Made by a program: the position numbers and the translations under genes. 64,000 nt of DNA from assembly GCF_053078305.1 (NCBI RefSeq), contig NZ_CP166879.1. One strand, given 5' to 3'. Of this stretch, positions 1-57,823 are shown piece after piece. The stretch's first letter is position 1, and every line of letters starts with the position of its first letter. The notes beneath the pieces are model-generated. The model was not told the DNA's origin and did no database searches. It saw only the letters and a list, made by a program, of their open reading frames with translations.

Positions 1-505
1 AAAACTCGGGCAGGAAACCGTCAAAATCGACCATCAGCACGCGCTGGTATCCCGCTTGTAACAGGCTAAGCACTTCACACAAACCTTGCTGGAAAGTGTC
101 GCGACCAGCAGAAAGCGATGACGAAACGATCGGCTGTTTGGCCGCAATGGTCAGGTTACCCACGGAAGAGTTGTGTACTGAAAGTGCAAAGTCGGTCGGA
201 GAAAGCGCCTGTTCGGTTGCCAGTGCATGAACAATGCGGTAATTGCGCTCCAGTTCGCCATGACGACTGGTATACAAAACGGCGTCTGGCTGATGGCGGC
301 GTAGCATTGCCAGACCGCATTCAACAGCCAGTTTGCTGCCTGAACTGAGGCGGCGGGCGGTCATCATTGGCAGTTCACTTAATTTTGCCAACGGCGCGGC
401 AGGGTCAATCGCCCACGGCTGGCGCGACCATGCTTGCCATTGCTGCGCTTCGCTAAGTCCAGGCGCCAGTGCCTGCCAGTCGGTAATATTTAATGTAAAT
501 TTCAT
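1..505 (-). CDS. Partial CDS (N-terminal 168 codons, continues beyond window start): ketosynthase/chain-length-factor-like protein of a fatty-acid/polyketide-type accessory cluster
   Basis: Reverse-strand translation from ATG at 505 gives MKFTLNITDWQALAPGLSEAQQWQAWSRQPWAIDPAAPLAKLSELPMMTARRLSSGSKLAVECGL... with no stop before position 1. Family assignment is by resemblance only. The two forward-strand ORFs in the track (118-348, 333-524) are treated as antisense artefacts. Confidence 0.5.
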   Translation of the reverse strand, partial: MKFTLNITDWQALAPGLSEAQQWQAWSRQPWAIDPAAPLAKLSELPMMTARRLSSGSKLAVECGLAMLRRHQPDAVLYTSRHGELERNYRIVHALATEQALSPTDFALSVHNSSVGNLTIAAKQPIVSSSLSAGRDTFQQGLCEVLSLLQAGYQRVLMVDFDGFLPEF

Positions 506-545
506 CAACGCGCGCCCGCGGTAAACCAAAATTATTAAGTGACGA

Positions 546-1613
546 TTATTTCTTTTGGCATATCAAAAGTGTATGCCCAACGCCTAAATTATCGTGGCGC
601 TCTGCTACCTGGAATCCTGCTTTATTCAGATAGTCGTAAAATTTCTCTGCACTATAGAAACGGCTGTTACCGTTTGCCATGCAGGTAAAATAAAGTGAGG
701 ACGCGTTCAGGCTAAACGATGCTGCTTCAAACCGCTGCGCATCCCAGAACAACTCCATGATGCAAACTTTTGCGCCAGGCTTCATTACGCTGGCAATTTT
801 GCTGAGTATGCTAATTATTTGTTCGGGTGAAAAACAGTCTAAAAATTGGCTCATCCACCAGATATCAGCCTCGCCCGGTAATGGGGCATCGCTTAGCATA
901 TCCACCGCATGGAAATCTATGCGATCAGAAAAACCTGCATTCGCGATATTTTCTTTCGCTAGTACGATTTGTTGTGGCAGATCTAATAACGTCACGGCGA
1001 TGTTTTCATTGTATTTGCAGCAACGCAAAGCCCACTTACCCGTATTGCCGCCTACATCGTACAATGTTGTGGGGTTGTTGGCGAATACATAAGGCAGTGC
1101 GGCGTTAAATGCGCCATCTGAATAGTAATGATCAAACGCAAACCAGCTTTCACGAGCGGCGTCTGGTAATTGCGAAAGTGCCGGATATATCGTCGACCAG
1201 TCGCCAAATACTTTTAACCCGGAAGGTTTTCCTTCATTGAGTGAATCGGCGAGGAAGAAGAGCCCCTGGTAACAGACATCCTGGGTGAAATCCATATTCA
1301 CGCGAGTCATAGTGTCATGCAGGAGGTAATGACCGATTTTCGCCAGGTAATAAATTCCCTCTTTACAGGTAATAATTCGCCCGCTTAAGCCCATATCTAA
1401 CAGAACGCTGGCAGCATATTCGTTGATATGGCTATGTTCGGTGATATCAGCCAGCGTTGCGCCATGTTTGCCTTGCCGATCCAGATATGAAAGTACACCC
1501 GCATTACGTAGGCAGAGTGCTGTTTGAAAAAGCATAGGGGCAAAGGCAATGCGTTGAGCTTCGGTAATCGCATCCAGTGCGCTAAGAGAATCCTGTTCGT
1601 ACATGTTGGGCAC
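546..1613 (-). CDS. Class I SAM-dependent (O-)methyltransferase-like protein; accessory relative to K-12
   Basis: 355-aa ORF with a glycine-rich SAM-binding motif I (LYDVGGNTGKWAL) and downstream acidic residue. It sits 40 bp upstream of the ketosynthase-like gene on the same strand. Start may be GTG at 1613 or ATG at 1604. Confidence 0.6.
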   Translation of the reverse strand: MPNMYEQDSLSALDAITEAQRIAFAPMLFQTALCLRNAGVLSYLDRQGKHGATLADITEHSHINEYAASVLLDMGLSGRIITCKEGIYYLAKIGHYLLHDTMTRVNMDFTQDVCYQGLFFLADSLNEGKPSGLKVFGDWSTIYPALSQLPDAARESWFAFDHYYSDGAFNAALPYVFANNPTTLYDVGGNTGKWALRCCKYNENIAVTLLDLPQQIVLAKENIANAGFSDRIDFHAVDMLSDAPLPGEADIWWMSQFLDCFSPEQIISILSKIASVMKPGAKVCIMELFWDAQRFEAASFSLNASSLYFTCMANGNSRFYSAEKFYDYLNKAGFQVAERHDNLGVGHTLLICQKK

Positions 1614-1672
1614 AACCTGTTAAGAGGGAATTAAATTATTATCGGACCGCAACGGCCCGACTTTAGGAGGAA

Positions 1673-2050
1673 TTATAAATCTGCGCCCGCTGACAAATTC
1701 AGTTGAATATCTTTGTCGAGATTGCGGACCCAGCGATTGTAGTTTTTATGAATTTGTCCGCCTGACGCTTGAAGGTTCTGGCTATTTTCATAATTGATAT
1801 CGTAGCTGGATGCCGTGTAGTTAATGCGTATTTCCGCTGAATGATCGCGTGACTGTTGACGTGCTTTAATTATGCCTTGTCCGGCTTCGGACATAATCCA
1901 TTTGCGTTCAACGCCAGCTTTCAGAATCGCTTTTTTCACTTGTTCCTGGGTATGACCAGCGCTGACGGTTGAGTGAACCTGATCAATTGGCGCAGTACGC
2001 GCGCAACCCGCTAAAGCACCCACAACAGCAATAGCCGCAAACCATTTCAT
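1673..2050 (-). CDS. Putative lipoprotein
   Basis: Trimmed to internal Met: MKWFAAIAVVGALAGC... has a signal peptide with lipobox LAGC. No recognised catalytic motif. Confidence 0.5.
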   Translation of the reverse strand: MKWFAAIAVVGALAGCARTAPIDQVHSTVSAGHTQEQVKKAILKAGVERKWIMSEAGQGIIKARQQSRDHSAEIRINYTASSYDINYENSQNLQASGGQIHKNYNRWVRNLDKDIQLNLSAGADL

Positions 2051-2441
2051 GTAATGTCTCATTAGAACCCCATTAAAGTATTGTTTTTACGAGTAAAGCA
2101 AGTTTTAACTGTAATTGCTGGCATCACTATTCTTTATTTAGAGAAAAAATTACTTGTGAGATAAGTCAGTAAGTGCACATCAGAGTAAAAATCTCTGAAA
2201 TGACTAAATTACTGCCAGCAGGGACCAACTATAAGTGAGTGAGAAAAATGAGGCAATAAAAATAACACAATGTTATCAGTGCATTCTTTGAGAAGGATTT
2301 AATCGCTATTCGGCGTTTATATATATTTGACTTAAGGAATGGTTTTTTTAAATTAATTTTCTGAATAATGTTTCATCATTTCCTCAAATCAAATGGCCAC
2401 TGTTAGATAAACGGTGGCCATTGCCTGCTCAGGAGGTGCTA

Positions 2442-3491
2442 TTAACCCGGTAACCGACTTTTCGGTCTGCCCGGCCCCAGTAAAATCGCCAGTTTGCTGC
2501 CGCCTTTCGTCGTTTCCATCCAGATTTTACACACGCTGGTTAATGGCACCGAAAGTAGCATCCCTACCGGGCCGAGCAGCCATCCCCAAATTAACAATGA
2601 AAGAAATACCACCATGGTGGACATCCCCAGGCGATGGCCCATCATCCGTGGTTCTAAAATATTGCCGATGACCATATGGACCACTAAAAACAATGCGCCG
2701 ACCAGAATACATTCGTAAACACCATTAAACAGCAGCACCTGAATCATTGGCGGTACGGCGGAAATTACCGCGCCGATATTGGGCACGTAGTTGAGCAAAA
2801 ACGCCAGTACTGCCCACATCAGCGCAAACTGCACCCCCATCAGCTCCAGCCCCAGCCAGACGATGACACCTGTCCATAAACTGAGTAGCGTCTTTAACGC
2901 CAGATAATGCGAAACGCCTTTAAGTGCGCGGTGTAGTCCGGCGATATGAATCTGTGGATTATTCAATGCAAAACGCATTTTGTAAGGGACGTGGCGCACT
3001 TCAAACAGCATAAAAACTACGGTCATCACCAGCAAAAGCACGCTCGCCATTGCCCCGGAAAGCCCGGTCATTAGCGCTGTGGTGAAGGTAACCACTTTTT
3101 CCGAGTCCATCCGCTGCAGCATTCGCTCCGGCGACATATGCAAATTAAGAAAAGGCAACATCTCCTGCAATTTAAAAAGTTTGCGCGTCAGCTCCTTATT
3201 AAACTTCGGCAGCATAGAGATAAATTCGTTAAACGATGCCGCCAGTACGCCGACCAGCGCGGTTAGTGCGATCAGCATCACCACCACTACAATCGTAATG
3301 GCAACGGGGCGTTGTACTCCCCGACGAATAAACCAGGTGACGAGCGGGTTGAGGACGATGGCAAAAAACAGCGCCAGTAACAGCTGCACAATGATATCTG
3401 CCGCTGCGTGAATGCCCGCGAGGATCACTACCAGCGAGGCCAGCTTGAGCAGAATGTGCATGCCCGTTTTATCGGGTTGAGGGGTTTCCAT
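2442..3491 (-). CDS. yhhT: AI-2E/PerM-family membrane transporter
   Basis: Polytopic membrane protein. ORF trimmed to Met giving 349 aa; position next to yhhS matches the K-12 order. Confidence 0.85.
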   Translation of the reverse strand: METPQPDKTGMHILLKLASLVVILAGIHAAADIIVQLLLALFFAIVLNPLVTWFIRRGVQRPVAITIVVVVMLIALTALVGVLAASFNEFISMLPKFNKELTRKLFKLQEMLPFLNLHMSPERMLQRMDSEKVVTFTTALMTGLSGAMASVLLLVMTVVFMLFEVRHVPYKMRFALNNPQIHIAGLHRALKGVSHYLALKTLLSLWTGVIVWLGLELMGVQFALMWAVLAFLLNYVPNIGAVISAVPPMIQVLLFNGVYECILVGALFLVVHMVIGNILEPRMMGHRLGMSTMVVFLSLLIWGWLLGPVGMLLSVPLTSVCKIWMETTKGGSKLAILLGPGRPKSRLPG

Positions 3492-22647: not shown

Positions 22648-22765
22648 ATTATCGAATACCCGGCGGCCACGTTCTGCCGGGCTCTTCGTCCGTATACAGA
22701 CTTGTTTCAACTGACCGGGAGGATTAAAACCAGACCACTTATTTGCCACGGAAAGGTTCCCTCCC

Positions 22766-23512
22766 ATGCATTATGCCGTTGTTGTCATGCTTGAACTGCT
22801 TTGCTGTATTCACGCTTACCGTACCGGACAAGAGCGGTACTGGATTTTTATCATTTTCTGTTTTCCGGTGATTGGCTGCGTGGCGTATTTCGTCATAGTG
22901 ATGCTGCCTGAAACGGGCGCTGACCGTCACGGGCATACTTTGCTGATGCGCCTGCAGAACAAACTCAACCCTGAGCGCCACCTGCGCAAATTAACCGAAG
23001 AACTGGCGATTGCCGAGACGAATCAAAACCATTATGCGTTGGCTAATGAACTGGCGCGTCTGGGGCGTTATCACGAAGCTGTTCCCCATTATCAGCAGGC
23101 GTTAAGCGGGATATTCGCCCATGAAGCGGCAATGATGCTAAGCCTGGCGCAGGCACAGTTTGCTATTCAGGAGTTCGCCGCCTGTCAGCAGACGCTGGAA
23201 GATGTGATGCGTTATAACCCTGATTTTCAGTCGGCAGACGGGCATTTGTTATTTGCCAGAACGTTAGCCGCACAAGAAAAATACGCTGATGCGGAAAGCG
23301 AGTTTGAAGTATTGATTTCTTATTACCCCGGCCCGCAGGCGCGTATTTACTATGCGGAAATGTTGGCGAAAATGAGTCGGTTACGTGAAGCCAACGAGCA
23401 GTATGTTGCTGTAGTTGATACGGCTAAACGCTCAAGACCTCATTATAGAAAACACCACCGGGAATGGATTAAGACCGCCAATGAACGGCTGAAGCAGAGT
23501 GTGGTGCAATGA
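22766..23512 (+). CDS. Hypothetical membrane-anchored protein: PLD-nuclease N-terminal-like two-helix anchor plus a TPR-like helical-repeat domain; accessory relative to K-12
   Basis: 248-aa ORF with its own RBS (GGAAAGG) and a downstream hairpin terminator. The N-terminus (CCIHAYRTGQERYWIFIIFCFPVIGCVAYFVIVMLPE) looks like a PLDc_N-type small membrane domain; the remainder is helical and alanine/leucine-rich. Confidence 0.6.
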   Translation: MHYAVVVMLELLCCIHAYRTGQERYWIFIIFCFPVIGCVAYFVIVMLPETGADRHGHTLLMRLQNKLNPERHLRKLTEELAIAETNQNHYALANELARLGRYHEAVPHYQQALSGIFAHEAAMMLSLAQAQFAIQEFAACQQTLEDVMRYNPDFQSADGHLLFARTLAAQEKYADAESEFEVLISYYPGPQARIYYAEMLAKMSRLREANEQYVAVVDTAKRSRPHYRKHHREWIKTANERLKQSVVQ

Positions 23513-23582
23513 AAATCTTCTTTGCCGTTAGACCAGTGTCGCGGCAATCTTTTGTTAAAATTGAAAAATGTAGCTCTCATCG

Positions 23583-23620
23583 GGCAGCAAAACTGGACGC
23601 AGAATTTGCTGCCATTTTTG
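23583..23620 (+). terminator. Hairpin terminator after the 22766-23512 gene
   Basis: GGCAGCAAA, loop, TTTGCTGCC, then ATTTTTG. Confidence 0.6.
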
Positions 23621-23871
23621 CTCTTCATGGTAAGGAGTTCTGGCGATTAGCTGGCCGTTAATCGCCTCTTTTCAGTGCATTCTCGGGATATCCGTGCCCC
23701 ATCTCCCATTTTCCCTCACCCGTACCGTCACCGCCTTGTCATCTTTCTGACACCTTACTATCTTACAAATGTAACAAAAAAGTTATTTTTCTGTAATTCG
23801 AGCATGTCATGTTACCCCGCGAGCATAAAACGCGTGAATTCGCGCATTCGGTACAACAAGAGAGATAAACG

Positions 23872-31890: not shown

Positions 31891-32385
31891 TTATGAACAA
31901 CTGTCCATGATTTCGTTTAAGAATGAAGAGAAATCACTAAACGAACTGAATATATTTTCTGTGCCAATATTATCTCTAATTTCAAAAAAGTTACTTTTAA
32001 TGTCATAAGTAAATATTGAAATGCTATCATCCCCGATCACTAACCGTTCTTGTAGATCAGGGTTTATGAAATCATCATTATTTCTATAAAATTCATTTAC
32101 GGCAAAAAGGTTTTTAACTGAAGGTTCTGGAATCGAGAGGCTAAATAATCGTAATCCATTAACTTCGAATCCATCCATTGCTCTTAAAAAAGTAAGATAA
32201 TCAGGTTGATTCTTAAAAAGAATACTAACTTCATTACATAACTTCTCCAGGCAATTAGTTGAATTAGAATTAAATTCTATTTGGATTATACTTTCAATAA
32301 ATGATTCCTTGAGCGGTGCTTCAAATGGATAGTCTAAATCATTCATCATTTTTATTAATTTGTTTATTTGGGTTTTAGTCATCAT
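31891..32385 (-). CDS. yrhA: Putative immunity protein for the upstream Hcp-HNH toxin (intact yrhA-like gene)
   Basis: 164-aa acidic protein whose start sits in an ATGATGA overlap with the yhhZ stop, indicating translational coupling. AT-rich. Calling it the intact counterpart of the K-12 yrhA pseudogene is from memory. Confidence 0.65.
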   Translation of the reverse strand: MMTKTQINKLIKMMNDLDYPFEAPLKESFIESIIQIEFNSNSTNCLEKLCNEVSILFKNQPDYLTFLRAMDGFEVNGLRLFSLSIPEPSVKNLFAVNEFYRNNDDFINPDLQERLVIGDDSISIFTYDIKSNFFEIRDNIGTENIFSSFSDFSSFLNEIMDSCS

Positions 32386-38363: not shown

Positions 38364-39704
38364 GTGACTACATTAACGCTTGTTTTAACAGCAGTAGGGT
38401 CTGTTTTACTGCTGCTGTTTTTAGTCATGAAGGCGCGTATGCACGCTTTCCTGGCTTTAATGGTGGTGTCCATGGGGGCTGGCCTTTTTTCCGGTATGCC
38501 GCTCGATAAAATCGCAGCGACGATGGAAAAAGGGATGGGAGGCACCCTCGGCTTCCTGGCGGTGGTTGTCGCCCTGGGAGCTATGTTTGGCAAGATCTTA
38601 CATGAAACCGGCGCAGTCGATCAGATTGCCGTCAAAATGCTTAAATCCTTCGGTCACAGCCGCGCGCATTATGCCATCGGCCTTGCGGGGCTGGTCTGTG
38701 CGCTACCGCTGTTCTTTGAAGTGGCGATTGTTCTGCTGATTAGCGTTGCTTTCTCAATGGCGCGCCACACCGGTACGAACCTGGTGAAGCTGGTAATCCC
38801 ATTATTCGCAGGCGTGGCGGCAGCGGCGGCGTTCCTGGTGCCAGGGCCAGCGCCAATGCTGCTGGCATCGCAGATGAACGCCGATTTTGGCTGGATGATC
38901 CTGATTGGCCTGTGTGCGGCAATTCCGGGAATGATTATTGCCGGGCCGCTGTGGGGTAACTTCATCAGCCGTTACGTTGAGCTGCATATTCCTGACGACA
39001 TCAGCGAGCCGCATCTCGGCGAAGGCAAAATGCCGTCCTTCGGATTCAGCCTGTCGCTGATCCTGCTGCCGCTGGTGCTGGTGGGGCTGAAAACCATTGC
39101 CGCGCGTTTTGTGCCGGAAGGCTCTACCGCTTACGAATGGTTCGAGTTTATTGGTCATCCGTTTACCGCGATTCTGGTTGCTTGTCTGGTAGCGATTTAT
39201 GGCCTGGCAATGCGTCAGGGCATGCCAAAAGACAAAGTGATGGAGATTTGCGGTCACGCGCTGCAACCGGCGGGGATCATTCTGCTGGTGATTGGTGCGG
39301 GCGGCGTGTTCAAACAGGTGCTGGTTGACTCTGGCGTAGGTCCGGCACTGGGCGAAGCGTTAACCGGCATGGGCCTGCCGATTGCTATCACCTGCTTCGT
39401 GCTGGCAGCTGCAGTGCGCATCATTCAGGGGTCTGCCACCGTTGCCTGTTTAACGGCGGTGGGGCTGGTGATGCCGGTCATTGAACAACTGAACTACTCC
39501 GGTGCGCAAATGGCGGCGCTGTCGATTTGTATCGCCGGTGGTTCGATTGTTGTCAGCCACGTTAACGACGCCGGTTTCTGGTTGTTCGGTAAATTTACCG
39601 GCGCGACCGAAGCCGAAACGCTGAAAACCTGGACCATGATGGAAACCATCCTCGGCACTGTTGGTGCCATCGTTGGGATGATTGCGTTCCAGCTGTTGAG
39701 TTAA
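38364..39704 (+). CDS. gntU: Low-affinity gluconate:H+ symporter (GntP family)
   Basis: 446-aa polytopic membrane protein with a GTG start immediately after gntK. Confidence 0.93.
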   Translation: MTTLTLVLTAVGSVLLLLFLVMKARMHAFLALMVVSMGAGLFSGMPLDKIAATMEKGMGGTLGFLAVVVALGAMFGKILHETGAVDQIAVKMLKSFGHSRAHYAIGLAGLVCALPLFFEVAIVLLISVAFSMARHTGTNLVKLVIPLFAGVAAAAAFLVPGPAPMLLASQMNADFGWMILIGLCAAIPGMIIAGPLWGNFISRYVELHIPDDISEPHLGEGKMPSFGFSLSLILLPLVLVGLKTIAARFVPEGSTAYEWFEFIGHPFTAILVACLVAIYGLAMRQGMPKDKVMEICGHALQPAGIILLVIGAGGVFKQVLVDSGVGPALGEALTGMGLPIAITCFVLAAAVRIIQGSATVACLTAVGLVMPVIEQLNYSGAQMAALSICIAGGSIVVSHVNDAGFWLFGKFTGATEAETLKTWTMMETILGTVGAIVGMIAFQLLS

Positions 39705-39718
39705 TTACTGCGACAAAT

Positions 39719-39750
39719 TACTGCGAGCTTGCTCGCAGTAATTCATTTCT
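39719..39750 (+). terminator. Terminator after gntU
   Basis: Perfect palindrome ACTGCGAGCTTGCTCGCAGT followed by a T-rich tract. Confidence 0.7.
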
Positions 39751-39843
39751 CTTTTCTCCTCTCTTCATCTTTTTGATCTCTCTCGCAAATTTACCTGCAA
39801 ATAATCCGTTCTAATCACTGCCTAAAGATCGCAGGAGATAAAG

Positions 39844-41940
39844 ATGGAAAAGCACGCAGCTGAATTGCTTTTACAGCGGATGTTAGGAAATACCACCGCT
39901 ACTTTCAGGGAAGGGCAATGGGAAGCCATAGACGCGGTGGTGAACCAACGGCGAAAACTGCTGGTTGTCCAACGCACTGGCTGGGGGAAAAGTGCTGTGT
40001 ACTTCATCGCCAGTAAAATCTTCCGCGATCGCGGCGCTGGCCCGACAATTATCATCTCTCCTTTGCTTGCCCAGATGCGTAACCAGGTTGCCGCCGCTGA
40101 ACGGTTAGGTATTACGGCTGAAACGTTGAATTCTACAAACAGGGAAGAATGGCAGCGCATTAGCGATAAGTTGCTGCAAGGTGCGGTCGATTGCTTGCTG
40201 GTTTCCCCGGAACGTTTGGCAAACCAGGACTTTATCGAAACGGTTTTATATCCTATAGCCGATCGTATTGGCTTGCTTGTGGTCGACGAGGCGCACTGCA
40301 TCTCTGATTGGGGCCACGATTTTCGCCCGGATTACCGACGTATATTAGATATTTTGCGCCAACTACCTGCGAATACCCCTGTTCTGGGTACAACCGCGAC
40401 AGCGAATAACCGTGTCGTTGAGGATATCCGTCAGCAATTGGGTGACATTGTGATTCAGCGTGGAACGCTGGCTCGCGAAAGTTTGGCGCTTGATGCCTTA
40501 GTCTTAGGTGAACAGTCATCCCGTCTGGCATGGTTAGCAACGGTTATCCCTCAGTTTTCCAAATCGGGAATTGTTTATACCCTGACTACTCGCGATGCCG
40601 AACTTGTCGCCGAGTGGTTAAGGAAAAATGGTATCAGTGCATTTGCTTACTACAGCGGCGTGACTTGTGAAGGCGCGGAAGATTCTAATACTGCCAGGGA
40701 ATATCTGGAGCAGGCGTTGCTGGCAAATAAAATTAAAGTGCTGGTTGCGACAACGGCGCTGGGAATGGGCTTTGACAAACCGGATTTGGGGTTTGTTATT
40801 CATTACCAGATGCCAGGTTCGATAGTTGGTTACTACCAACAGGTGGGGCGTGCCGGTCGCGGTATCGATTCTGCTGTTGGCATACTGCTTTGCGGCAGTG
40901 AAGACCGTGCTATTCATAAATTCTTCCGTGAAAGCGCCTTTCCTGCGGAGGCGCAAATTCATGAATTACTCAACGTACTTAGCGTGAATGACGGTCTTAC
41001 CTTACGAGGCATTGAACAACGGACGAATCTCCGTTATGGGCAAATAGAAAAAGCACTGAAATTATTGGTAGCTGAAAATCCATCGCCTGTGGTGTATACC
41101 GAGAAATTATGGCGCAGAACAATTGTCAGTTTTTCTCCTGACCATGAACGAATTAACCATTTGATGAATCAGAGAAAAAGTGAGCTGGCAGACGTTGAAA
41201 GCTATATCACGACCAAGGAGTGCAAAATGCAATTTCTGCGCCGCGCACTCGATGAGCCAGGTGCCGAACATTGTGGTAAATGTAGCAGTTGTCTTCAGCA
41301 TCCGTTGTTGTCGCCCGACATTGATAGCGGCTTACTCCATGCGGCAAACTTATTTATTAAACACGCTGACCTGTCATTAAATCTCAATAAACAGGTGGCA
41401 GCTGGGGCTTTTACGCAATACGGATTTAAAGGGAACTTGCCTGCGATTTTACAAGGATCTACGGGGCGAATCCTTTCTCGTTGGGGAGATTCCGGGTGGG
41501 GAAAGCAGGTAGCACAGGAGAAAAAAACGGGGCGATTCAGTGATGAACTGGTGGAGGCATGTGCGGAAATGGTTCGCCAACGCTGGAATCCGCATCCTGA
41601 ACCAACCTGGGTATGCTGCGTTCCTTCATTACAGCACCTCGACCTGGTTCCTGATTTTGCCCGGCGACTGGCGGCGAAACTTGGCTTACCTTTTATTGAT
41701 GCCATTGAAAAAGTCGTGGACAATCCACCGCAGAAAATGCAGCAAAACCGTTTCCACCAGTGTCAAAATCTCGACGGGGCGTTTGTGATTACCCCTCCTT
41801 TGATGCCTGGTCCGGCGTTGCTGGTTGACGATATCGTGGATTCTGCATGGACGCTGACAGTTCTGACAGCACTGTTACGCCAGGCAGGTTGCCCGACGGT
41901 TTATCCTCTTGCCCTTGCTTCTACCTCGGTAAAAAATTGA
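39844..41940 (+). CDS. RecQ-like superfamily-2 DNA helicase fused to a C-terminal phosphoribosyltransferase (ComF/PRTase-like) domain; accessory relative to K-12
   Basis: 698 aa with RecQ-type motifs in order: FREGQWEAI (motif 0), TGWGKS (Walker A), DEAHCISDWGHDFRPDY (DEAH box), TATA (motif III), VATTALGMGFDKPD (motif V), QQVGRAGRG (motif VI), then a Cys cluster HCGKCSSC. C-terminal PRPP-binding-like motif ALLVDDIVDSAWT. Good SD (AGGAGATAAAG) before the ATG. Confidence 0.8.
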   Translation: MEKHAAELLLQRMLGNTTATFREGQWEAIDAVVNQRRKLLVVQRTGWGKSAVYFIASKIFRDRGAGPTIIISPLLAQMRNQVAAAERLGITAETLNSTNREEWQRISDKLLQGAVDCLLVSPERLANQDFIETVLYPIADRIGLLVVDEAHCISDWGHDFRPDYRRILDILRQLPANTPVLGTTATANNRVVEDIRQQLGDIVIQRGTLARESLALDALVLGEQSSRLAWLATVIPQFSKSGIVYTLTTRDAELVAEWLRKNGISAFAYYSGVTCEGAEDSNTAREYLEQALLANKIKVLVATTALGMGFDKPDLGFVIHYQMPGSIVGYYQQVGRAGRGIDSAVGILLCGSEDRAIHKFFRESAFPAEAQIHELLNVLSVNDGLTLRGIEQRTNLRYGQIEKALKLLVAENPSPVVYTEKLWRRTIVSFSPDHERINHLMNQRKSELADVESYITTKECKMQFLRRALDEPGAEHCGKCSSCLQHPLLSPDIDSGLLHAANLFIKHADLSLNLNKQVAAGAFTQYGFKGNLPAILQGSTGRILSRWGDSGWGKQVAQEKKTGRFSDELVEACAEMVRQRWNPHPEPTWVCCVPSLQHLDLVPDFARRLAAKLGLPFIDAIEKVVDNPPQKMQQNRFHQCQNLDGAFVITPPLMPGPALLVDDIVDSAWTLTVLTALLRQAGCPTVYPLALASTSVKN

Positions 41941-43142
41941 TGAATCTTTCAGCCAATGCACAAGCAACTCTCCTGCTAACCAGCGATTTTTCTCGCGCGG
42001 CGGCGAGTGAGTATAAACCTCTTAGTAATAGTGAATGGGGGAAGTTTGCATTATGGCTGAAGCACCAACGTATCAGTCCCGCCGAGCTTCTGGTGCCGCA
42101 ACCGCAAGAGAAACTTACAGGCTGGAGCGATCCGCGTATTTCTCAGGAGCGTATTCTTGGCTTGCTGGCGCGTGGTCATAGTCTGGCGTTGGCGGTAGAT
42201 AAGTGGCAACGCGCCGGTTTATGGATCTTAACCCGCGGAGATGCTGATTATCCCGTTCGCTTGAAAAACCGATTGCGAACGGATGCACCTCCCGTTTTAT
42301 TTGGCTGCGGGAATAAAGCATTACTGCAAGCGGAAGGTATGGCGATTGTTGGCTCGCGAGATGCTCCGACTGACGATTTGCGCTATACCCAACAACTGGC
42401 CGCGAAACTGGCCCAACAGGGGATTTGCGTTATCTCTGGTGGTGCGCGAGGTATTGATGAATGTGCAATGGCGTCGGTACTGGAGGCCGGGGGAACTGCC
42501 GTTGGCGTATTAGCTGATAGCTTGTTAAAAACGAGTACGTTAGTGAAATGGCGTGAAGGGCTTATAGCAGGCAACCTGGTGTTGATTTCGCCGTTTTACC
42601 CAGAGGTACGTTTCACCGTCGGCAATGCGATGGCGCGAAATAAATATATTTATTGCCTTGCTGAAAGCGCAATGGTTGTACGTGCGGGAATGACCGGTGG
42701 AACGATAACCGGGGCGATGGAGGCATTAAAACATCAGTGGCTGCCTGTGCAGGTTAAACCAAATCAGGATATGCAATCAGCCAATTCACGATTAGTAGAA
42801 AATGGGGCGTCATGGAGTGCTGAACAGGCTGAGAATGTGACGATCAGACTGCCAGACGTTCCTGGGCTGATGTATGACAGAGCACTCCGTAACGCTCAAC
42901 CAGAACTGTTTTCGCTGCATGAAGATGACGCAAATTACGCAGTAATGCCCGCGTATACGCCTGTCGATTTTTATCAACTCTTTGTGGCGGAACTGGCGAT
43001 CCTTGCAAAGGAATCGATAAGTATTGAAAGGCTGGCGTCTTGTACTGGTTTAACCATCGAACAAATTAGTGTGTGGCTGAACCGCGCAGAAGAAGAGGGA
43101 AGGGTTATCCGATTGGGCGAAGGTCATTATCAGTTCAGGTAA
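41940..43142 (+). CDS. DprA/Smf-like (SLOG-type Rossmann) protein, coupled to the upstream helicase; accessory relative to K-12
   Basis: Start ATG overlaps the helicase stop (TGATG). About 400 aa with a DprA-like Rossmann core (GSRDAPTDDLRYTQQLAAKLAQQGICVISGGARGIDECAMASVLEAGGTAVGVLADSL ... FTVGNAMARNKYIYCLAESAMVV) and a C-terminal helical region. The track's upstream extension (41847) lies inside the helicase and is rejected. Confidence 0.75.
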   Translation: MNLSANAQATLLLTSDFSRAAASEYKPLSNSEWGKFALWLKHQRISPAELLVPQPQEKLTGWSDPRISQERILGLLARGHSLALAVDKWQRAGLWILTRGDADYPVRLKNRLRTDAPPVLFGCGNKALLQAEGMAIVGSRDAPTDDLRYTQQLAAKLAQQGICVISGGARGIDECAMASVLEAGGTAVGVLADSLLKTSTLVKWREGLIAGNLVLISPFYPEVRFTVGNAMARNKYIYCLAESAMVVRAGMTGGTITGAMEALKHQWLPVQVKPNQDMQSANSRLVENGASWSAEQAENVTIRLPDVPGLMYDRALRNAQPELFSLHEDDANYAVMPAYTPVDFYQLFVAELAILAKESISIERLASCTGLTIEQISVWLNRAEEEGRVIRLGEGHYQFR

Positions 43143-43187
43143 TAAAACAGGTGCCGCGTCTGGTTGTGTGCAGCACCTGTTTGAACC

Positions 43188-54833: not shown

Positions 54834-56351
54834 ATGGACAGAATGATGCCAAATAGAAAATGGATTTTGACCTCGCTGATAATGACTTTTTTCGGCATCC
54901 CCATACTGGCGCAATTTTTGGCAGCGGTTGTTGCCATGCTGGGTGTCGGGCTTACCGGTATTATTGAAGTTTGTAATATCCTTATCACGCCAACAATTTA
55001 TCTTCTACTCAACGTCTTTATGCTGACGCTGGGGGCGATAATAATATTTTTCTCTGGTCGCGTGTGGGCCGGTGATAGCGCGCCAGAAAACAGAGAAATA
55101 GCCGTCTGGCGGCAATGCTTTTTTCTCTTACCCGCGCTATTAACCCTGGTTGGCTGGATAATCACGCTACATCTGGCAGATTATCAATTTCGCCAGATGG
55201 GAGCTGGTTGGTTGGCAAACCTTATGCTTCCCTGGTTGGGCGTTTTTTTAGTCTCATTAGTGGGTGGTGAGTACTGGTGGATGGTCATTATTCCCGTTGG
55301 GGTGCATATCAGTTTTTCGCTGGGATACGCCTGGCCGACCAGATATCCTTTATCCGGCACGTCCGGACTACGTTGCCGTAACTTACTCCTGTTTCTACTT
55401 CTCTTACTTGGTATTGTCGCCGGGTATCAGGCCCATTTATATAAGCAGCAAAATCCTGGTGTCGGTGTACGCGAAAATATTGATATCTGGGCCTGGCGAC
55501 CCGATAAACTCAATAATCGACTGACGCCGCTGCGTGGCAAACCGCAAATTCAGTTTAGGCAAAACTGGCCGCGAATCGATGGCGCCACGGCTGCGTACCC
55601 AATTTATGCTTCTGCATTTTATGCATTAAGTGTAATACCAGAGGATTTTCACGTTTGGGATTATCTGGAAAACTCTCGTACGCCAGAAGCATATAACAAA
55701 ATCGTTAAGGGCGATGCTGATATTATTTTCGTGGCGCAACCTTCCGGTGGGCAAAAAAAACGTGCAAAGGAATCTGGTGTCACTTTGCTGTACACCCCCT
55801 TTGCCCGTGAAGCATTCGTTTTCATCGTCAATGCGGATAATCCGGTTAATTCCCTGACTGAACAACAGGTGCGTGACATTTTCAGTGGTGCAATTACCAA
55901 CTGGCGTACTTTTGGCGGTAACGATCAGGAGATCCAGACCTGGCAGCGCCCGGAAGACTCTGGCAGCCAGACAGTGATGCAATCACAGGTCATGAAAAAT
56001 GTCCGCATGATCTCGCCGCAGGAAACGGAAGTGGCAAGCGTGATGGAGGGAATGATTAAAGTCGTTGCCGAATACCGTAATACAAACAACGCAATAGGCT
56101 ATACCTTCCGCTATTACGCGACGCAAATGAATGCTGATAAAAATATAAAATTGCTAGCGATTAACGGTATTACACCGACGGCGGAAAACATTCGCAACGG
56201 CAAATATGCGTACATCGTCGATGCATTTATGGTGACGAGAGAAAATAAAACGTCAGAAACACAAAAACTGGTCGAATGGTTTTTAACGCCGCAGGGGCAG
56301 AGTCTGGTAGAAGATGTGGGATATGTGCCGCTGTATAAAATCTTACCTTAA
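54834..56351 (+). CDS. Membrane-anchored PstS-like (phosphate-binding-type) periplasmic binding domain protein; accessory relative to K-12
   Basis: 505 aa. The N-terminal roughly 200 aa hold multiple hydrophobic helices; the C-terminal roughly 280 aa resemble PstS-like binding proteins (IDGATAAYPIYASAF, LTEQQVRDIFSGAITNWRTFGG). Start may be ATG 54843, which has better SD spacing. Confidence 0.65.
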   Translation: MDRMMPNRKWILTSLIMTFFGIPILAQFLAAVVAMLGVGLTGIIEVCNILITPTIYLLLNVFMLTLGAIIIFFSGRVWAGDSAPENREIAVWRQCFFLLPALLTLVGWIITLHLADYQFRQMGAGWLANLMLPWLGVFLVSLVGGEYWWMVIIPVGVHISFSLGYAWPTRYPLSGTSGLRCRNLLLFLLLLLGIVAGYQAHLYKQQNPGVGVRENIDIWAWRPDKLNNRLTPLRGKPQIQFRQNWPRIDGATAAYPIYASAFYALSVIPEDFHVWDYLENSRTPEAYNKIVKGDADIIFVAQPSGGQKKRAKESGVTLLYTPFAREAFVFIVNADNPVNSLTEQQVRDIFSGAITNWRTFGGNDQEIQTWQRPEDSGSQTVMQSQVMKNVRMISPQETEVASVMEGMIKVVAEYRNTNNAIGYTFRYYATQMNADKNIKLLAINGITPTAENIRNGKYAYIVDAFMVTRENKTSETQKLVEWFLTPQGQSLVEDVGYVPLYKILP

Positions 56352-56453
56352 GCAGGATAATCATATGGATACCGGTATTATTCGCCTGAACGCGGCCAAT
56401 GCTCGTTTTGTTTATCAACCGTTTACACGCAATCAGCGGAAGAGGGAGTAATT

Positions 56454-57230
56454 ATGCAATGCAGCCCCGCCATGCAGGCATTAATTGAGCAGATTTATCA
56501 TATTTTTCGTCGTTATCCGGTGCCGTCGAGATTTCATGTTTGTTGTCCTTACTGCTTTAGCGAAGAACAACAACAAGCCTTAAGAGGGGTTTCACTGCGT
56601 GCCATACCTTTCCCTTTATTACATGCCTGGGGAACAAGTATTGGTCCTACCCCGCAAAATGATGATGAGATTCGCTATTTATTACCCAGATTGTTTGAAT
56701 TTATTTCCCAAAGGCAATTTCCAGGCATTTATGAAGGCTGCTGTTTACAGAGAATAGCAGAGGCAGATAACCAGAACTGGCGAACGGACGAACTACAAAT
56801 AATTAGCGATTTCGCCTATTTATATATGCAGGATTGGGTGTCGGCTAAGGAGGTCGTAGAACTGGAAATAATATTAGAAATGTTTTATCGCGGTGGTATA
56901 AAGATTGAACCCTTACTTGACGCCATTATGTCCATTTCCGGTTACTGGCCGACGGCGTCTATGGCATGTTTGCTCTGGCGTAACAGTAAAGAATACGTCG
57001 AAAATAGCGATTTTGAGCAGAGTGATGATAATAAAACTATTACCACTCAAATTAATACCTGGGCTAGAAATAATCATCCTTTTCTGAAAGAAAGAGCGCG
57101 ACAAGCGATTGAGAACCCACTAAAACAGCCTGAACCAATGACAGAATATCAAGTCTGGGAAGACGACTGGATGATTGATGAGTGTTTATGCGCGATGTAT
57201 GACGCATCACCCGAACAATCAGGACAATAA
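56454..57230 (+). CDS. Hypothetical Cys-rich soluble protein
   Basis: 258-aa ORF with a HVCCPYC cluster near the N-terminus and no recognised motifs; AT-rich codon usage. Confidence 0.5.
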   Translation: MQCSPAMQALIEQIYHIFRRYPVPSRFHVCCPYCFSEEQQQALRGVSLRAIPFPLLHAWGTSIGPTPQNDDEIRYLLPRLFEFISQRQFPGIYEGCCLQRIAEADNQNWRTDELQIISDFAYLYMQDWVSAKEVVELEIILEMFYRGGIKIEPLLDAIMSISGYWPTASMACLLWRNSKEYVENSDFEQSDDNKTITTQINTWARNNHPFLKERARQAIENPLKQPEPMTEYQVWEDDWMIDECLCAMYDASPEQSGQ

Positions 57231-57232
57231 AG

Positions 57233-57823
57233 ATGAATAAAATCAGACTTTATATTTATCCGCTATATCTCGGCTTTGTTATTGTGCCGTTGTTGGTGTG
57301 GCCGACGGTGGTTGTTGTTGGTATCACACTGAGTTTTCTAATGGAGATGCTGTTCTCAAATTCGTTCATGCACAGGCGTATTTCCCTTCTGGAATTACAA
57401 CTTGGGTTATTGGCTGAATATACGCTTTTGTTCTGCGCCATATGTTGCGTTGGTTGGCAATTTGCTCGCATAACTCAATCTGAATTGAAAAGCAAACTGC
57501 ATTATTGGCTGGTATTTGTACCAGTTTATTTCTGGTTGCTCCTGTGGAATATCATTTTCTATGTCGCGCCAGCGAAAATTGCATTGCTGGAAAATATGCG
57601 CAGTTTCTTTCTGACCGTTGTCTGGCTCCCACTGAATTTTTCGCCATTTTGGTCTCAACCGTGGATTGACTTTGTCGGTCCAATAAGCGCACAGCTTGGT
57701 TTTGCGTTGGGATATTATTGCCAGTGGCGTAGCAAAAATAGAAGCCAGAGGAAGAAGTGGGGCGAGTGGGTAATGTGCTTAAGTTTTGTTACGTTGGGTA
57801 TGATGGCGTGGGCTTTGCGGTAA
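57233..57823 (+). CDS. Hypothetical polytopic membrane protein
   Basis: 196-aa ORF with 4-5 predicted TM helices. Its start is 3 bp after the stop of the upstream ORF. Confidence 0.5.
   Translation: MNKIRLYIYPLYLGFVIVPLLVWPTVVVVGITLSFLMEMLFSNSFMHRRISLLELQLGLLAEYTLLFCAICCVGWQFARITQSELKSKLHYWLVFVPVYFWLLLWNIIFYVAPAKIALLENMRSFFLTVVWLPLNFSPFWSQPWIDFVGPISAQLGFALGYYCQWRSKNRSQRKKWGEWVMCLSFVTLGMMAWALR

Follow-up and report, generated by a model that had tools for sequence, protein, structure and literature searches.

A very probable rqlH-rqlI (PsyrTA) toxin-antitoxin operon between gntU and yhgN of an Escherichia coli chromosome

The closest described relatives of the locus studied here are rqlH and rqlI of Escherichia coli F11, two co-transcribed genes whose products form a toxin-antitoxin pair: RqlH is a toxin acting via its phosphoribosyltransferase (PRTase) domain, and RqlI an antitoxin that binds this domain (PMC4670107). 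RqlH alone is genotoxic, inducing the SOS response, filamentation and a raised mutation rate; toxicity requires the C-terminal PRTase and residue D663 (it is lost in the D663A mutant), the PRTase domain by itself being insufficient, and it is also held in check by the helicase ATPase of RqlH (PMC4670107). RqlI co-immunoprecipitates with RqlH and neutralises it, the interaction being lost upon deletion of the PRTase, and its C-terminal helix-turn-helix (HTH) is dispensable for antitoxin activity (PMC4670107). The same 2015 study reports the K49A and D148A mutants, the separate expression of the two genes in MG1655 (a strain with neither rqlH nor rqlI), and neutralisation upon co-expression. In F11, a single deletion of rqlI is strongly harmful, and the double deletion of rqlHI leaves fitness unimpaired both in vitro and in mice (PMC4670107). 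According to Millman et al. (2022), PsyrTA is the same system as RqlHI and is listed as an anti-phage system, phage defence by PsyrTA was reported and a psyrA deletion was unobtainable. For PsyrTA of E. coli NILS69, protection could not be detected with the phages used, be it by deletion in the native host or by expression in MG1655, and a growth defect was seen. PsyrTA is also included in pan-genome surveys of E. coli, being enriched in phylogroup E2, and is detected by commonly used software (PADLOC and, as the literature has it, DefenseFinder). The founding biochemical member of the RqlH family, from Mycobacterium smegmatis, has a 3'-5' helicase activity that is independent of its PRTase (Ordonez et al., 2012, PMC3378886), and many RqlH homologues have no RqlI partner (Russell and Mulvey, PMC4670107).

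We analysed a stretch of 64,000 nt (the window) and consider it very probable that the two genes lying there between gntU and yhgN are an intact E. coli rqlH-rqlI operon, i.e., PsyrTA, a chromosomal toxin-antitoxin module that is classed as anti-phage and of the abortive-infection type. They occupy an accessory segment (positions 39705..43187, + strand) of 3,483 bp that stands in place of the 56-bp gntU-yhgN spacer of MG1655: in junction alignments and by blastn, homology to MG1655 ends at the TAA of gntU (39704) and is back at the stop codon of yhgN (43188). The original prediction of an extra segment that K-12 does not have is thus borne out; to call it an insertion is fair relative to K-12, be it a gain here or a loss in K-12. 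The intrinsic terminator hairpin of gntU (39716..39743, + strand), recovered both by the terminator scan and as inverted repeat I7, has a stem of 12-13 bp and, after it, a T-rich tail; this hairpin is part of the accessory segment and is unlike the K-12 terminator. At the other end, a hairpin with 13-nt arms and a 12-nt loop (43145..43182, no strand assigned, inverted repeat I9) separates the convergent rqlI and yhgN genes, a position that makes it a probable bidirectional terminator.

Carriage of the pair by an integrase-borne genomic island or as prophage cargo was considered and rejected. There are no tRNA genes in the 64,000-nt window, a search for direct repeats or other mobile-element scars flanking the segment returned none, and the segment holds only two ORFs, with no space in which an integrase gene would fit, in agreement with the earlier remark that neither integrase nor tRNA accompanies the pair. 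A search of a phage collection gave only partial matches to the helicase core and no full-length homologue, which argues against phage carriage. The GC content of the segment (0.44-0.53) is near that of its flanks. No sigma-70 consensus promoter was found on the + strand 5' of rqlH by scanning, and reading the 100-nt leader of rqlH by eye revealed no convincing -35/-10 pair.

The first gene, rqlH or psyrT (39844..41940, + strand), is preceded by a Shine-Dalgarno sequence (AGGAG) about 8 nt 5' of its ATG and encodes a protein of 698 aa in which a C-terminal PRTase is joined to a RecQ-like SF2 helicase. It matches the PADLOC profile of PsyrT with 1056.6 bits, over residues 3-697 and profile positions 5-687 of 689. 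The helicase core (residues ~20-357, 39901..40914, + strand) is delimited by Pfam, NCBIfam, PDB matches and motif positions, with TGWGKS at residue 45, DEAH at 148 and GRAGR at 335; the codon of the Walker A lysine K49 is found at 39988-39990 and those of the DEAH box (D148) at 40285-40296. Pfam detects DEAD (2.9e-23) and Helicase_C (9.5e-13), and the PDB structure of RecQ (1oyw) matches the core at 7e-52. The protein lies above the cut-off of the NCBIfam family recQ_fam (248.9 bits versus 219.8), but far below that of the recQ equivalog TIGR01389 (292 versus 640). As in PsyrTA/RqlHI toxins, an intact Walker A motif and DEAH box are thus found in an N-terminal RecQ-family SF2 core. A RecQ-type zinc-binding region (residues ~443-484, 41170..41295, + strand) with the motif CGKCSSC follows, recognised by a weak Pfam match (RecQ_Zn_bind, E 0.0031); it can be aligned over nine homologues, among which the cysteines vary.

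The toxic PRTase domain is assigned to residues 509-698 (41368..41937, + strand) from Pfam, an AlphaFold2 model and a fold search. The Pfam match to Pribosyltran is weak (residues 605-683, E 0.0087), and when the C-terminal 198 residues were compared with the PDB by sequence only, nothing significant emerged, the best matches being APRTs at E ~0.3. The AlphaFold2 model of residues 486-698 has a pLDDT of 88.5, and each PDB match retrieved with it is a type I PRTase or ComF, so that at the level of the predicted fold the weak Pfam call is confirmed. The PRPP-loop motif DIVD663 is encoded at 41830-41841 and D663 is invariant in the alignment of nine homologues: the C-terminal type I PRTase with an acidic PRPP-binding loop that marks PsyrTA/RqlHI toxins is present.

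The second gene, rqlI or psyrA (41940..43142, + strand), placed from its ORF and the junction, encodes a DprA-like antitoxin of 400 aa. Its ATG shares one base with the TGA of rqlH (TGATG; junction sequence TTGATGAATC), an overlap that suggests translational coupling of the two genes. The longest form of the ORF, annotated by RefSeq as a protein of 431 aa, starts at 41847; we dropped this start and prefer 41940, since the match to the PsyrA profile sets in at residue 1 of the 400-aa form, since the starts of homologues lie no more than a few bases from the stop codon of the helicase gene, and since RqlI of F11 has 400 aa. The match to the PADLOC profile of PsyrA (669.1 bits) covers residues 1-400 and profile positions 1-397 of 398. 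A DprA/SLOG Rossmann-like domain (residues 89-292, 42204..42815, + strand) is supported by Pfam (DNA_processg_A, 6.1e-50; LDcluster4, i.e., SLOG cluster 4, 5.9e-11) and by PDB matches to DprA chains (~9e-11) and to ShosA (9vzo, 6e-7), and the score on the dprA equivalog TIGR00732 (100) is below the cut-off of 191. A weak Pfam match (HTH_26, E 0.35) marks a putative HTH region at residues ~345-400 (42972..43139, + strand), the part of F11 RqlI in which an HTH was described (PMC4670107). A DprA-like (SLOG/Rossmann) gene hence lies directly 3' of the toxin gene, on the same strand and overlapping it, as in other PsyrTA/RqlHI loci.

The identity of the pair also follows from comparison with known alleles, for which the B2 strain EC958 was used as a stand-in for F11. 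The EC958 proteins encoded at the same site are 97% (RqlH) and 99% (RqlI) identical to ours, with 21 and four substitutions, respectively, that leave the catalytic motifs untouched, and K49, D148 and DIVD663 bear the same residue numbers as in F11 RqlH (Russell and Mulvey, 2015). From these identities to the B2 allele and the conserved residues we infer that the present RqlH would be toxic and would be neutralised by its RqlI. On sequence evidence both genes are under purifying selection, the codon differences from EC958 being 85 synonymous and 21 non-synonymous in rqlH and nine and four, respectively, in rqlI. Much of the original prediction holds: Pfam, NCBIfam and PDB recover the helicase motifs that it had read, and the AlphaFold2 fold its C-terminal PRTase; Pfam, the PsyrA profile and the junction sequence agree with a DprA-like second gene whose start overlaps the helicase stop; and both proteins are indeed diverged paralogues of RecQ and DprA, because both score under the NCBIfam equivalog cut-offs. 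It had proposed a resemblance to PsyrTA and a check with tools such as PADLOC, which matches PsyrT and PsyrA at full length; the type was right, but mere resemblance was not, this being the same system as rqlHI. Nor does the PRTase fusion set this locus apart, since it is the defining, toxic domain of RqlH/PsyrT and is spanned by the PsyrT profile. The roles that were held to be unassignable had already been assigned in 2015, RqlH as toxin and RqlI as antitoxin (Russell and Mulvey), and the implied novelty was mistaken, most of the proposed experiments having been published in that year on a near-identical allele. The two-gene pair is real, but it is an already known system that has been named and experimentally dissected.

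Among 5,426 complete E. coli genomes, 1,641 (~30%) have a complete locus between gntU and yhgN, always on the chromosome; it is absent from MG1655, DH5alpha and BL21-derived strains, and the present pair sits at this very site. rqlHI is a widespread polymorphism with a fixed place on the chromosome, not a strain-specific acquisition. Beyond this site, one homologous pair occurs on an E. coli IncF plasmid, flanked by hsdS and hsdR of a type I restriction-modification (R-M) operon, and another on an Acinetobacter plasmid, directly 3' of the BREX gene pglX. The overlapping two-gene layout recurs in a Deltaproteobacteria MAG and on a Nostoc plasmid, and haloarchaeal as well as two actinobacterial plasmid loci have no annotated DprA-like gene beside the helicase. 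A degenerate DNA pattern for the PRPP loop (VDDIVDSAWT), searched in one genome per species, matched only once, in a Deltaproteobacteria MAG, the pattern being a narrow one.

What the present allele displays is the gene order, the apparent coupling, full-length family membership, intact K49, D148 and D663, the predicted PRTase fold and the fixed site. In the abortive-infection reading that we prefer, phage infection would titrate away the DprA-like RqlI (ssDNA of the phage or intermediates of replication being possible sinks) or prevent its replenishment, and the loss of RqlI would set free the helicase-tethered PRTase. The freed enzyme might then spend PRPP, damaging DNA or nucleotide metabolism, and such damage would halt replication in host and phage alike. 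The putative trigger, titration of RqlI, is borrowed from the related ShosTA system, an imperfect analogy because RqlI binds its toxin and ShosA does not. The defence reading is supported by the phage defence reported by Millman et al. and by the homologues within R-M and BREX clusters, i.e., by an association with defence islands; the negative assays with NILS69 PsyrTA, the unimpaired fitness of the F11 double deletion and the lack of a sigma-70 consensus 5' of rqlH speak against this explanation.

Could the pair instead be mainly a selfish addiction module, kept since the loss or disruption of rqlI harms the cell and of no anti-phage benefit to E. coli? The strong harm done by an rqlI deletion next to a double deletion for which neither a cost nor a benefit was measurable, be it in vitro or in mice, the absence of protection in NILS69 and in MG1655, and the restriction of the pair to the chromosome, at one fixed site in 30% of the genomes, would all suit such a module. 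We nevertheless hold it to be unlikely, given that a homologous PsyrTA conferred phage defence in Millman et al., that R-M and BREX clusters harbour homologues, and that both genes experience purifying selection; in its pure form, addiction also fits poorly with the many RqlH homologues devoid of RqlI, including the haloarchaeal and the two actinobacterial plasmid loci. It seems to us distinctly unlikely that the chromosomal E. coli allele is not primarily anti-phage and that a helicase-guided PRTase would phosphoribosylate DNA or DNA-bound bases, with RqlI as processing partner; if true, this would make the chemistry of the enzyme a novel, DNA-directed type among PRTases. The lack of protection in the phage assays with NILS69 and MG1655 fits this reading.

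In the model of Russell and Mulvey, the pair is a DNA modification or repair device in which the helicase-tethered PRTase alters a DNA base and RqlI and the helicase resolve it; the DNA transaction carried out by the pair would then be of benefit, with toxicity as a by-product of imbalance. The model came from SOS induction, mutagenesis and the complex genetics of K49A and D663A (PMC4670107), and the present pair has both a helicase core of the RecQ family and a DprA-like fold of the ssDNA-binding kind, which suits the model. The model appears very improbable to us, as the double deletion has no phenotype, DNA modification has so far not been demonstrated, and the related ShosT acts on purine metabolism and does not demonstrably modify DNA; moreover, rqlHI is missing from 70% of E. 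coli genomes and is therefore not housekeeping. A DNA-uptake or competence-type machine, comparable to the ComFA helicase, the ComFC PRTase and DprA, is barely credible: this parallel was pointed out in PMC4670107, ComF of Helicobacter pylori (7p0h) is the second-best PDB match of the PRTase model and RqlI has a DprA domain, yet natural transformation was not detected in the ExPEC isolates of those authors (PMC4670107), both proteins are well under the recQ and dprA equivalog cut-offs, and toxicity with neutralisation as well as a defence-island context would be unexpected for competence genes. Returning to the rqlHI/PsyrTA identity that we favour, the window contributes one more intact allele of this family, and no new handle on the family's questions.

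Among known systems, the housekeeping proteins RecQ, DprA/Smf and ComFA/ComFC have folds in common with the pair (the RecQ core, the DprA Rossmann domain and the ComF-like PRTase, respectively), but rqlHI differs from them in its accessory context and toxin-antitoxin behaviour, and a housekeeping identity was discarded as the NCBIfam equivalog cut-offs are not reached. RqlH of M. smegmatis (PMC3378886) has the same arrangement of a RecQ-like helicase and a C-terminal PRTase, at ~40% identity, yet it stands alone, without an RqlI partner. ShosTA resembles RqlHI in its PRPP-dependent PRTase toxin, in causing DNA damage and filamentation and in its DprA-like antitoxin, and ShosA profiles do match RqlI (4e-26, 90 bits versus 669 for PsyrA); ShosT, however, has no helicase domain, and membership in ShosTA was rejected as the toxin here bears one and RqlI scores best on PsyrA rather than ShosA. 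PsyrTA (Sberro, 2013; Millman, 2022; PADLOC PDLC03928 and PDLC03927) has the same architecture, with a RecQ-like helicase-PRTase toxin and a DprA-like antitoxin encoded by adjacent overlapping genes, and both of its profiles are matched end to end; its anti-phage activity, in the part of the published account available, was reported for a homologue different from the E. coli chromosomal allele. Closest of all is RqlH-RqlI of F11 (PMC4670107), from the same species and in the same operon, with rqlH first and an RqlI of 400 aa, from which the present pair, judged via the B2 strain EC958, differs only as one allele from another.

Judged by its sequence, the two-gene locus between gntU and yhgN is the rqlHI operon, which is already known, named, dissected by experiment and picked up routinely. 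The product of the first gene (39844..41940, + strand, 698 aa) matches the PADLOC profile PsyrT end to end (1056.6 bits, residues 3-697, profile positions 5-687 of 689), and that of the second (ATG at 41940, end at 43142, + strand, 400 aa) matches PsyrA likewise (669.1 bits, residues 1-400, profile positions 1-397 of 398), which bears out the original prediction of a PsyrTA-type family. PsyrTA is RqlHI, a DprA-like antitoxin with a phosphoribosyltransferase (PRTase)-containing toxin (Millman et al.). Given the extent of the PsyrT match, the PRTase domain belongs to this profile, and the toxicity of RqlH from strain F11 depends on it (PMC4670107); the PRTase fusion is thus not the distinguishing feature that it had been suggested it might be. 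K49, D148 and DIVD663 stand at the same residue numbers in the window RqlH as in F11 RqlH, and RqlI has 400 aa, that of F11 comprising residues 1-400 (PMC4670107). Compared with the same-locus proteins of the B2 strain EC958, used in place of F11, RqlH is 97% identical (677/698) and RqlI 99% (396/400), both without gaps.

To the left of the locus are gntR-gntK-gntU, to its right yhgN-asd-glgB. In the alignment to the MG1655 junction, homology stops at the gntU TAA (39704) and restarts at the yhgN stop (43188), so that 3,483 bp (39705-43187) take the place of the 56-bp spacer of K-12; the predicted pair of ORFs absent from K-12 was confirmed in every detail. The accessory segment carries a gntU terminator hairpin of its own (39716-39743) and a second hairpin in the gap where the convergent genes rqlI and yhgN meet (43145-43182). 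As proposed, neither integrase nor tRNA accompanies the genes: no tRNA was found in the window, and the segment has no space for an integrase gene. Flanking direct repeats were looked for around the segment and not found, and its GC content is close to that of the flanks. A perfect 16-nt inverted repeat (39308-39323 and 43171-43186; GTTCAAACAGGTGCTG / CAGCACCTGTTTGAAC) has one arm within gntU and the other in the terminator hairpin after rqlI, at the very end of the segment. The chance of so distant a match is roughly estimated at 0.005 per 4.4-kb region, and 15 of the 16 bases are kept in EC958; the repeat could be a coincidence or a vestige of the segment's origin.

The rqlI ATG at 41940 overlaps the rqlH TGA by one base (TTGATGAATC). 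A longer in-frame form begins at 41847, and in other strains the RefSeq/PGAP annotation starts the DprA-like gene at this upstream ATG (431 aa, 94 nt shared with rqlH). Profiles and homologues speak for the start at 41940, which suggests that the 431-aa annotation is probably a systematic start-site over-extension.

Several other stretches of the window differ from MG1655. Window 1-2445 has no counterpart beside yhhT in MG1655, where acpT and nikA come next; it encodes a FlxJ-family methyltransferase (546..1613, - strand; NF053543 2e-142, under its cut-off) and a 129-aa ORF, lipoprotein-like by eye, with no family match (1673..2062, - strand). Many E. coli other than K-12 have an aryl-polyene/flexirubin-type cluster close to acpT, and we take this stretch to be probably the edge of one. 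The livF-ugpB gap (22648-23688) measures 1,041 bp versus 215 bp in MG1655 and holds a 248-aa ORF whose N-terminus is hydrophobic and which shows weak TPR-like similarity (22766..23512, + strand; YbgF, 2e-7); no PADLOC match was found in it. MG1655's IS1B between yrhD and yrhA is missing at about 31993-32004, leaving an uninterrupted site. Finally, 2.7 kb between glgP and glpD (55069-57758) are not in MG1655. Here yzgL, of which K-12 has only a pseudogene stub, is full-length, and its product is a 505-aa membrane protein that has a PstS-family domain; a 258-aa ORF (56454..57230) and a membrane-like 196-aa ORF (57233..57823) have no NCBIfam or PADLOC match.

The predicted domains of both proteins were upheld. 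RqlH has the Pfam DEAD and Helicase_C domains of a RecQ-family SF2 helicase core, a weak RecQ zinc-binding match (Pfam), and E. coli RecQ as its best PDB structure by sequence (1oyw, 7e-52). It passes NCBIfam recQ_fam (249 bits, cut-off 220) and scores 292 against the recQ equivalog (cut-off 640), which marks it as a paralogue and not the housekeeping RecQ. Because the Pfam Pribosyltran match is weak (residues 605-683, E 0.0087), the PRTase was examined by fold. Nine full-length RqlH homologues were aligned (from E. coli, Acinetobacter, Nostoc, Sinorhizobium, a haloarchaeon and two actinobacteria), and residues 486-698 were modelled with the C-terminal regions of eight of them and of a homologue from a Deltaproteobacteria MAG. 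The predicted structure (pLDDT 88.5, pTM 0.85) has as leading PDB fold matches only type I PRTases or H. pylori ComF (APRT 1mzv, 9e-5; ComF 7p0h, 1.2e-4; then OPRT, HGPRT and PurF), and all nine aligned homologues keep D663, which lies in the PRPP loop. The DprA/SLOG domain of RqlI spans residues 89-292 (Pfam 6e-50); the protein scores 100 against the dprA equivalog, under the cut-off of 191, and its PDB sequence matches include solved DprA structures and the antitoxin ShosA (9vzo).

Toxin and antitoxin roles, which had been left open, were in fact assigned by Russell & Mulvey (2015; PMC4670107), who characterized rqlH-rqlI as an operon in the E. coli cystitis isolate F11. By itself, RqlH triggers the SOS response, makes cells filament and is mutagenic; this holds for F11 and also for MG1655, a strain with neither gene. 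Its toxicity requires the PRTase domain (residues 509-690), insufficient on its own, and D663, since neither the DIVD663EVME nor the D663A mutant is toxic; the helicase mutations K49A and D148A worsen the effect. RqlI (residues 1-400) neutralizes RqlH and co-immunoprecipitates with it, for which the PRTase domain is required, and F11 without rqlHI has no detectable fitness defect (PMC4670107). Near-identical proteins have thus been shown to form a toxin-antitoxin pair with PRTase-dependent toxicity and neutralization through direct binding, and the window allele has an intact architecture with its catalytic residues present. What value remains lies in the family's unsolved biochemistry, on which the window gives no specific handle.

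A complete rqlHI lies between gntU and yhgN in 1,641 of 5,426 complete E. coli genomes, chromosomal and single-copy every time, the site being empty in K-12, DH5alpha and BL21-derived strains. The nearest genome among the matches listed is strain A16 (99.7%). Nucleotide identity to EC958 is lower for rqlH (94.6%) than for the flanks (97.3-98.6%) and reaches 98.8% for rqlI; the rqlH changes are mainly synonymous (85 synonymous versus 21 non-synonymous codons). In published surveys PsyrTA is listed as one of the E. coli defence systems; it is enriched in phylogroup E2 and has a similar genomic context from strain to strain. Searches found full-length homologues on 12 plasmids or chromids and none in the phage collection. 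The two-gene layout is equally tight on a Nostoc plasmid and in the Deltaproteobacteria MAG. For haloarchaeal, Arthrobacter and Tsukamurella copies no DprA-like neighbour was found in the annotation, consistent with the many published RqlH homologues without RqlI (PMC4670107).

Two diverged PsyrTA pairs are nested among other defence genes. That of an IncF plasmid of E. coli (NZ_OX030731.1; L007, 4001-7518) sits inside a type I R-M operon (hsdM-hsdS-psyrT-psyrA-hsdR), and that of an Acinetobacter plasmid (L009, 2998-6527) directly follows the BREX gene pglX, the toxins being 61% and 49% identical to RqlH, respectively. This nesting independently supports a defence role of the family, and suggests a possible functional coupling of PsyrTA with R-M or BREX. 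Millman et al. reported phage defence by PsyrTA and were unable to delete psyrA. With one E. coli PsyrTA, no protection was seen, whether in NILS69, its native host, or in MG1655. Taken as a pure addiction module, as a DNA modification or repair device, or as a competence-like machine, rqlHI has less support than as a defence system.

For this defence role we infer a mode of action by analogy with ShosTA. In that system, PRPP is bound by the PRTase toxin, which disturbs purine metabolism and damages DNA; the DprA-like antitoxin acts via ssDNA and RecA, and phage DNA may displace it. Similarly, phage replication intermediates or host shut-off would release RqlH from its antitoxin, and DNA replication would come to a halt through the helicase-tethered PRTase. 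One difference limits the analogy: RqlH is bound by RqlI, but ShosT is not bound by ShosA.
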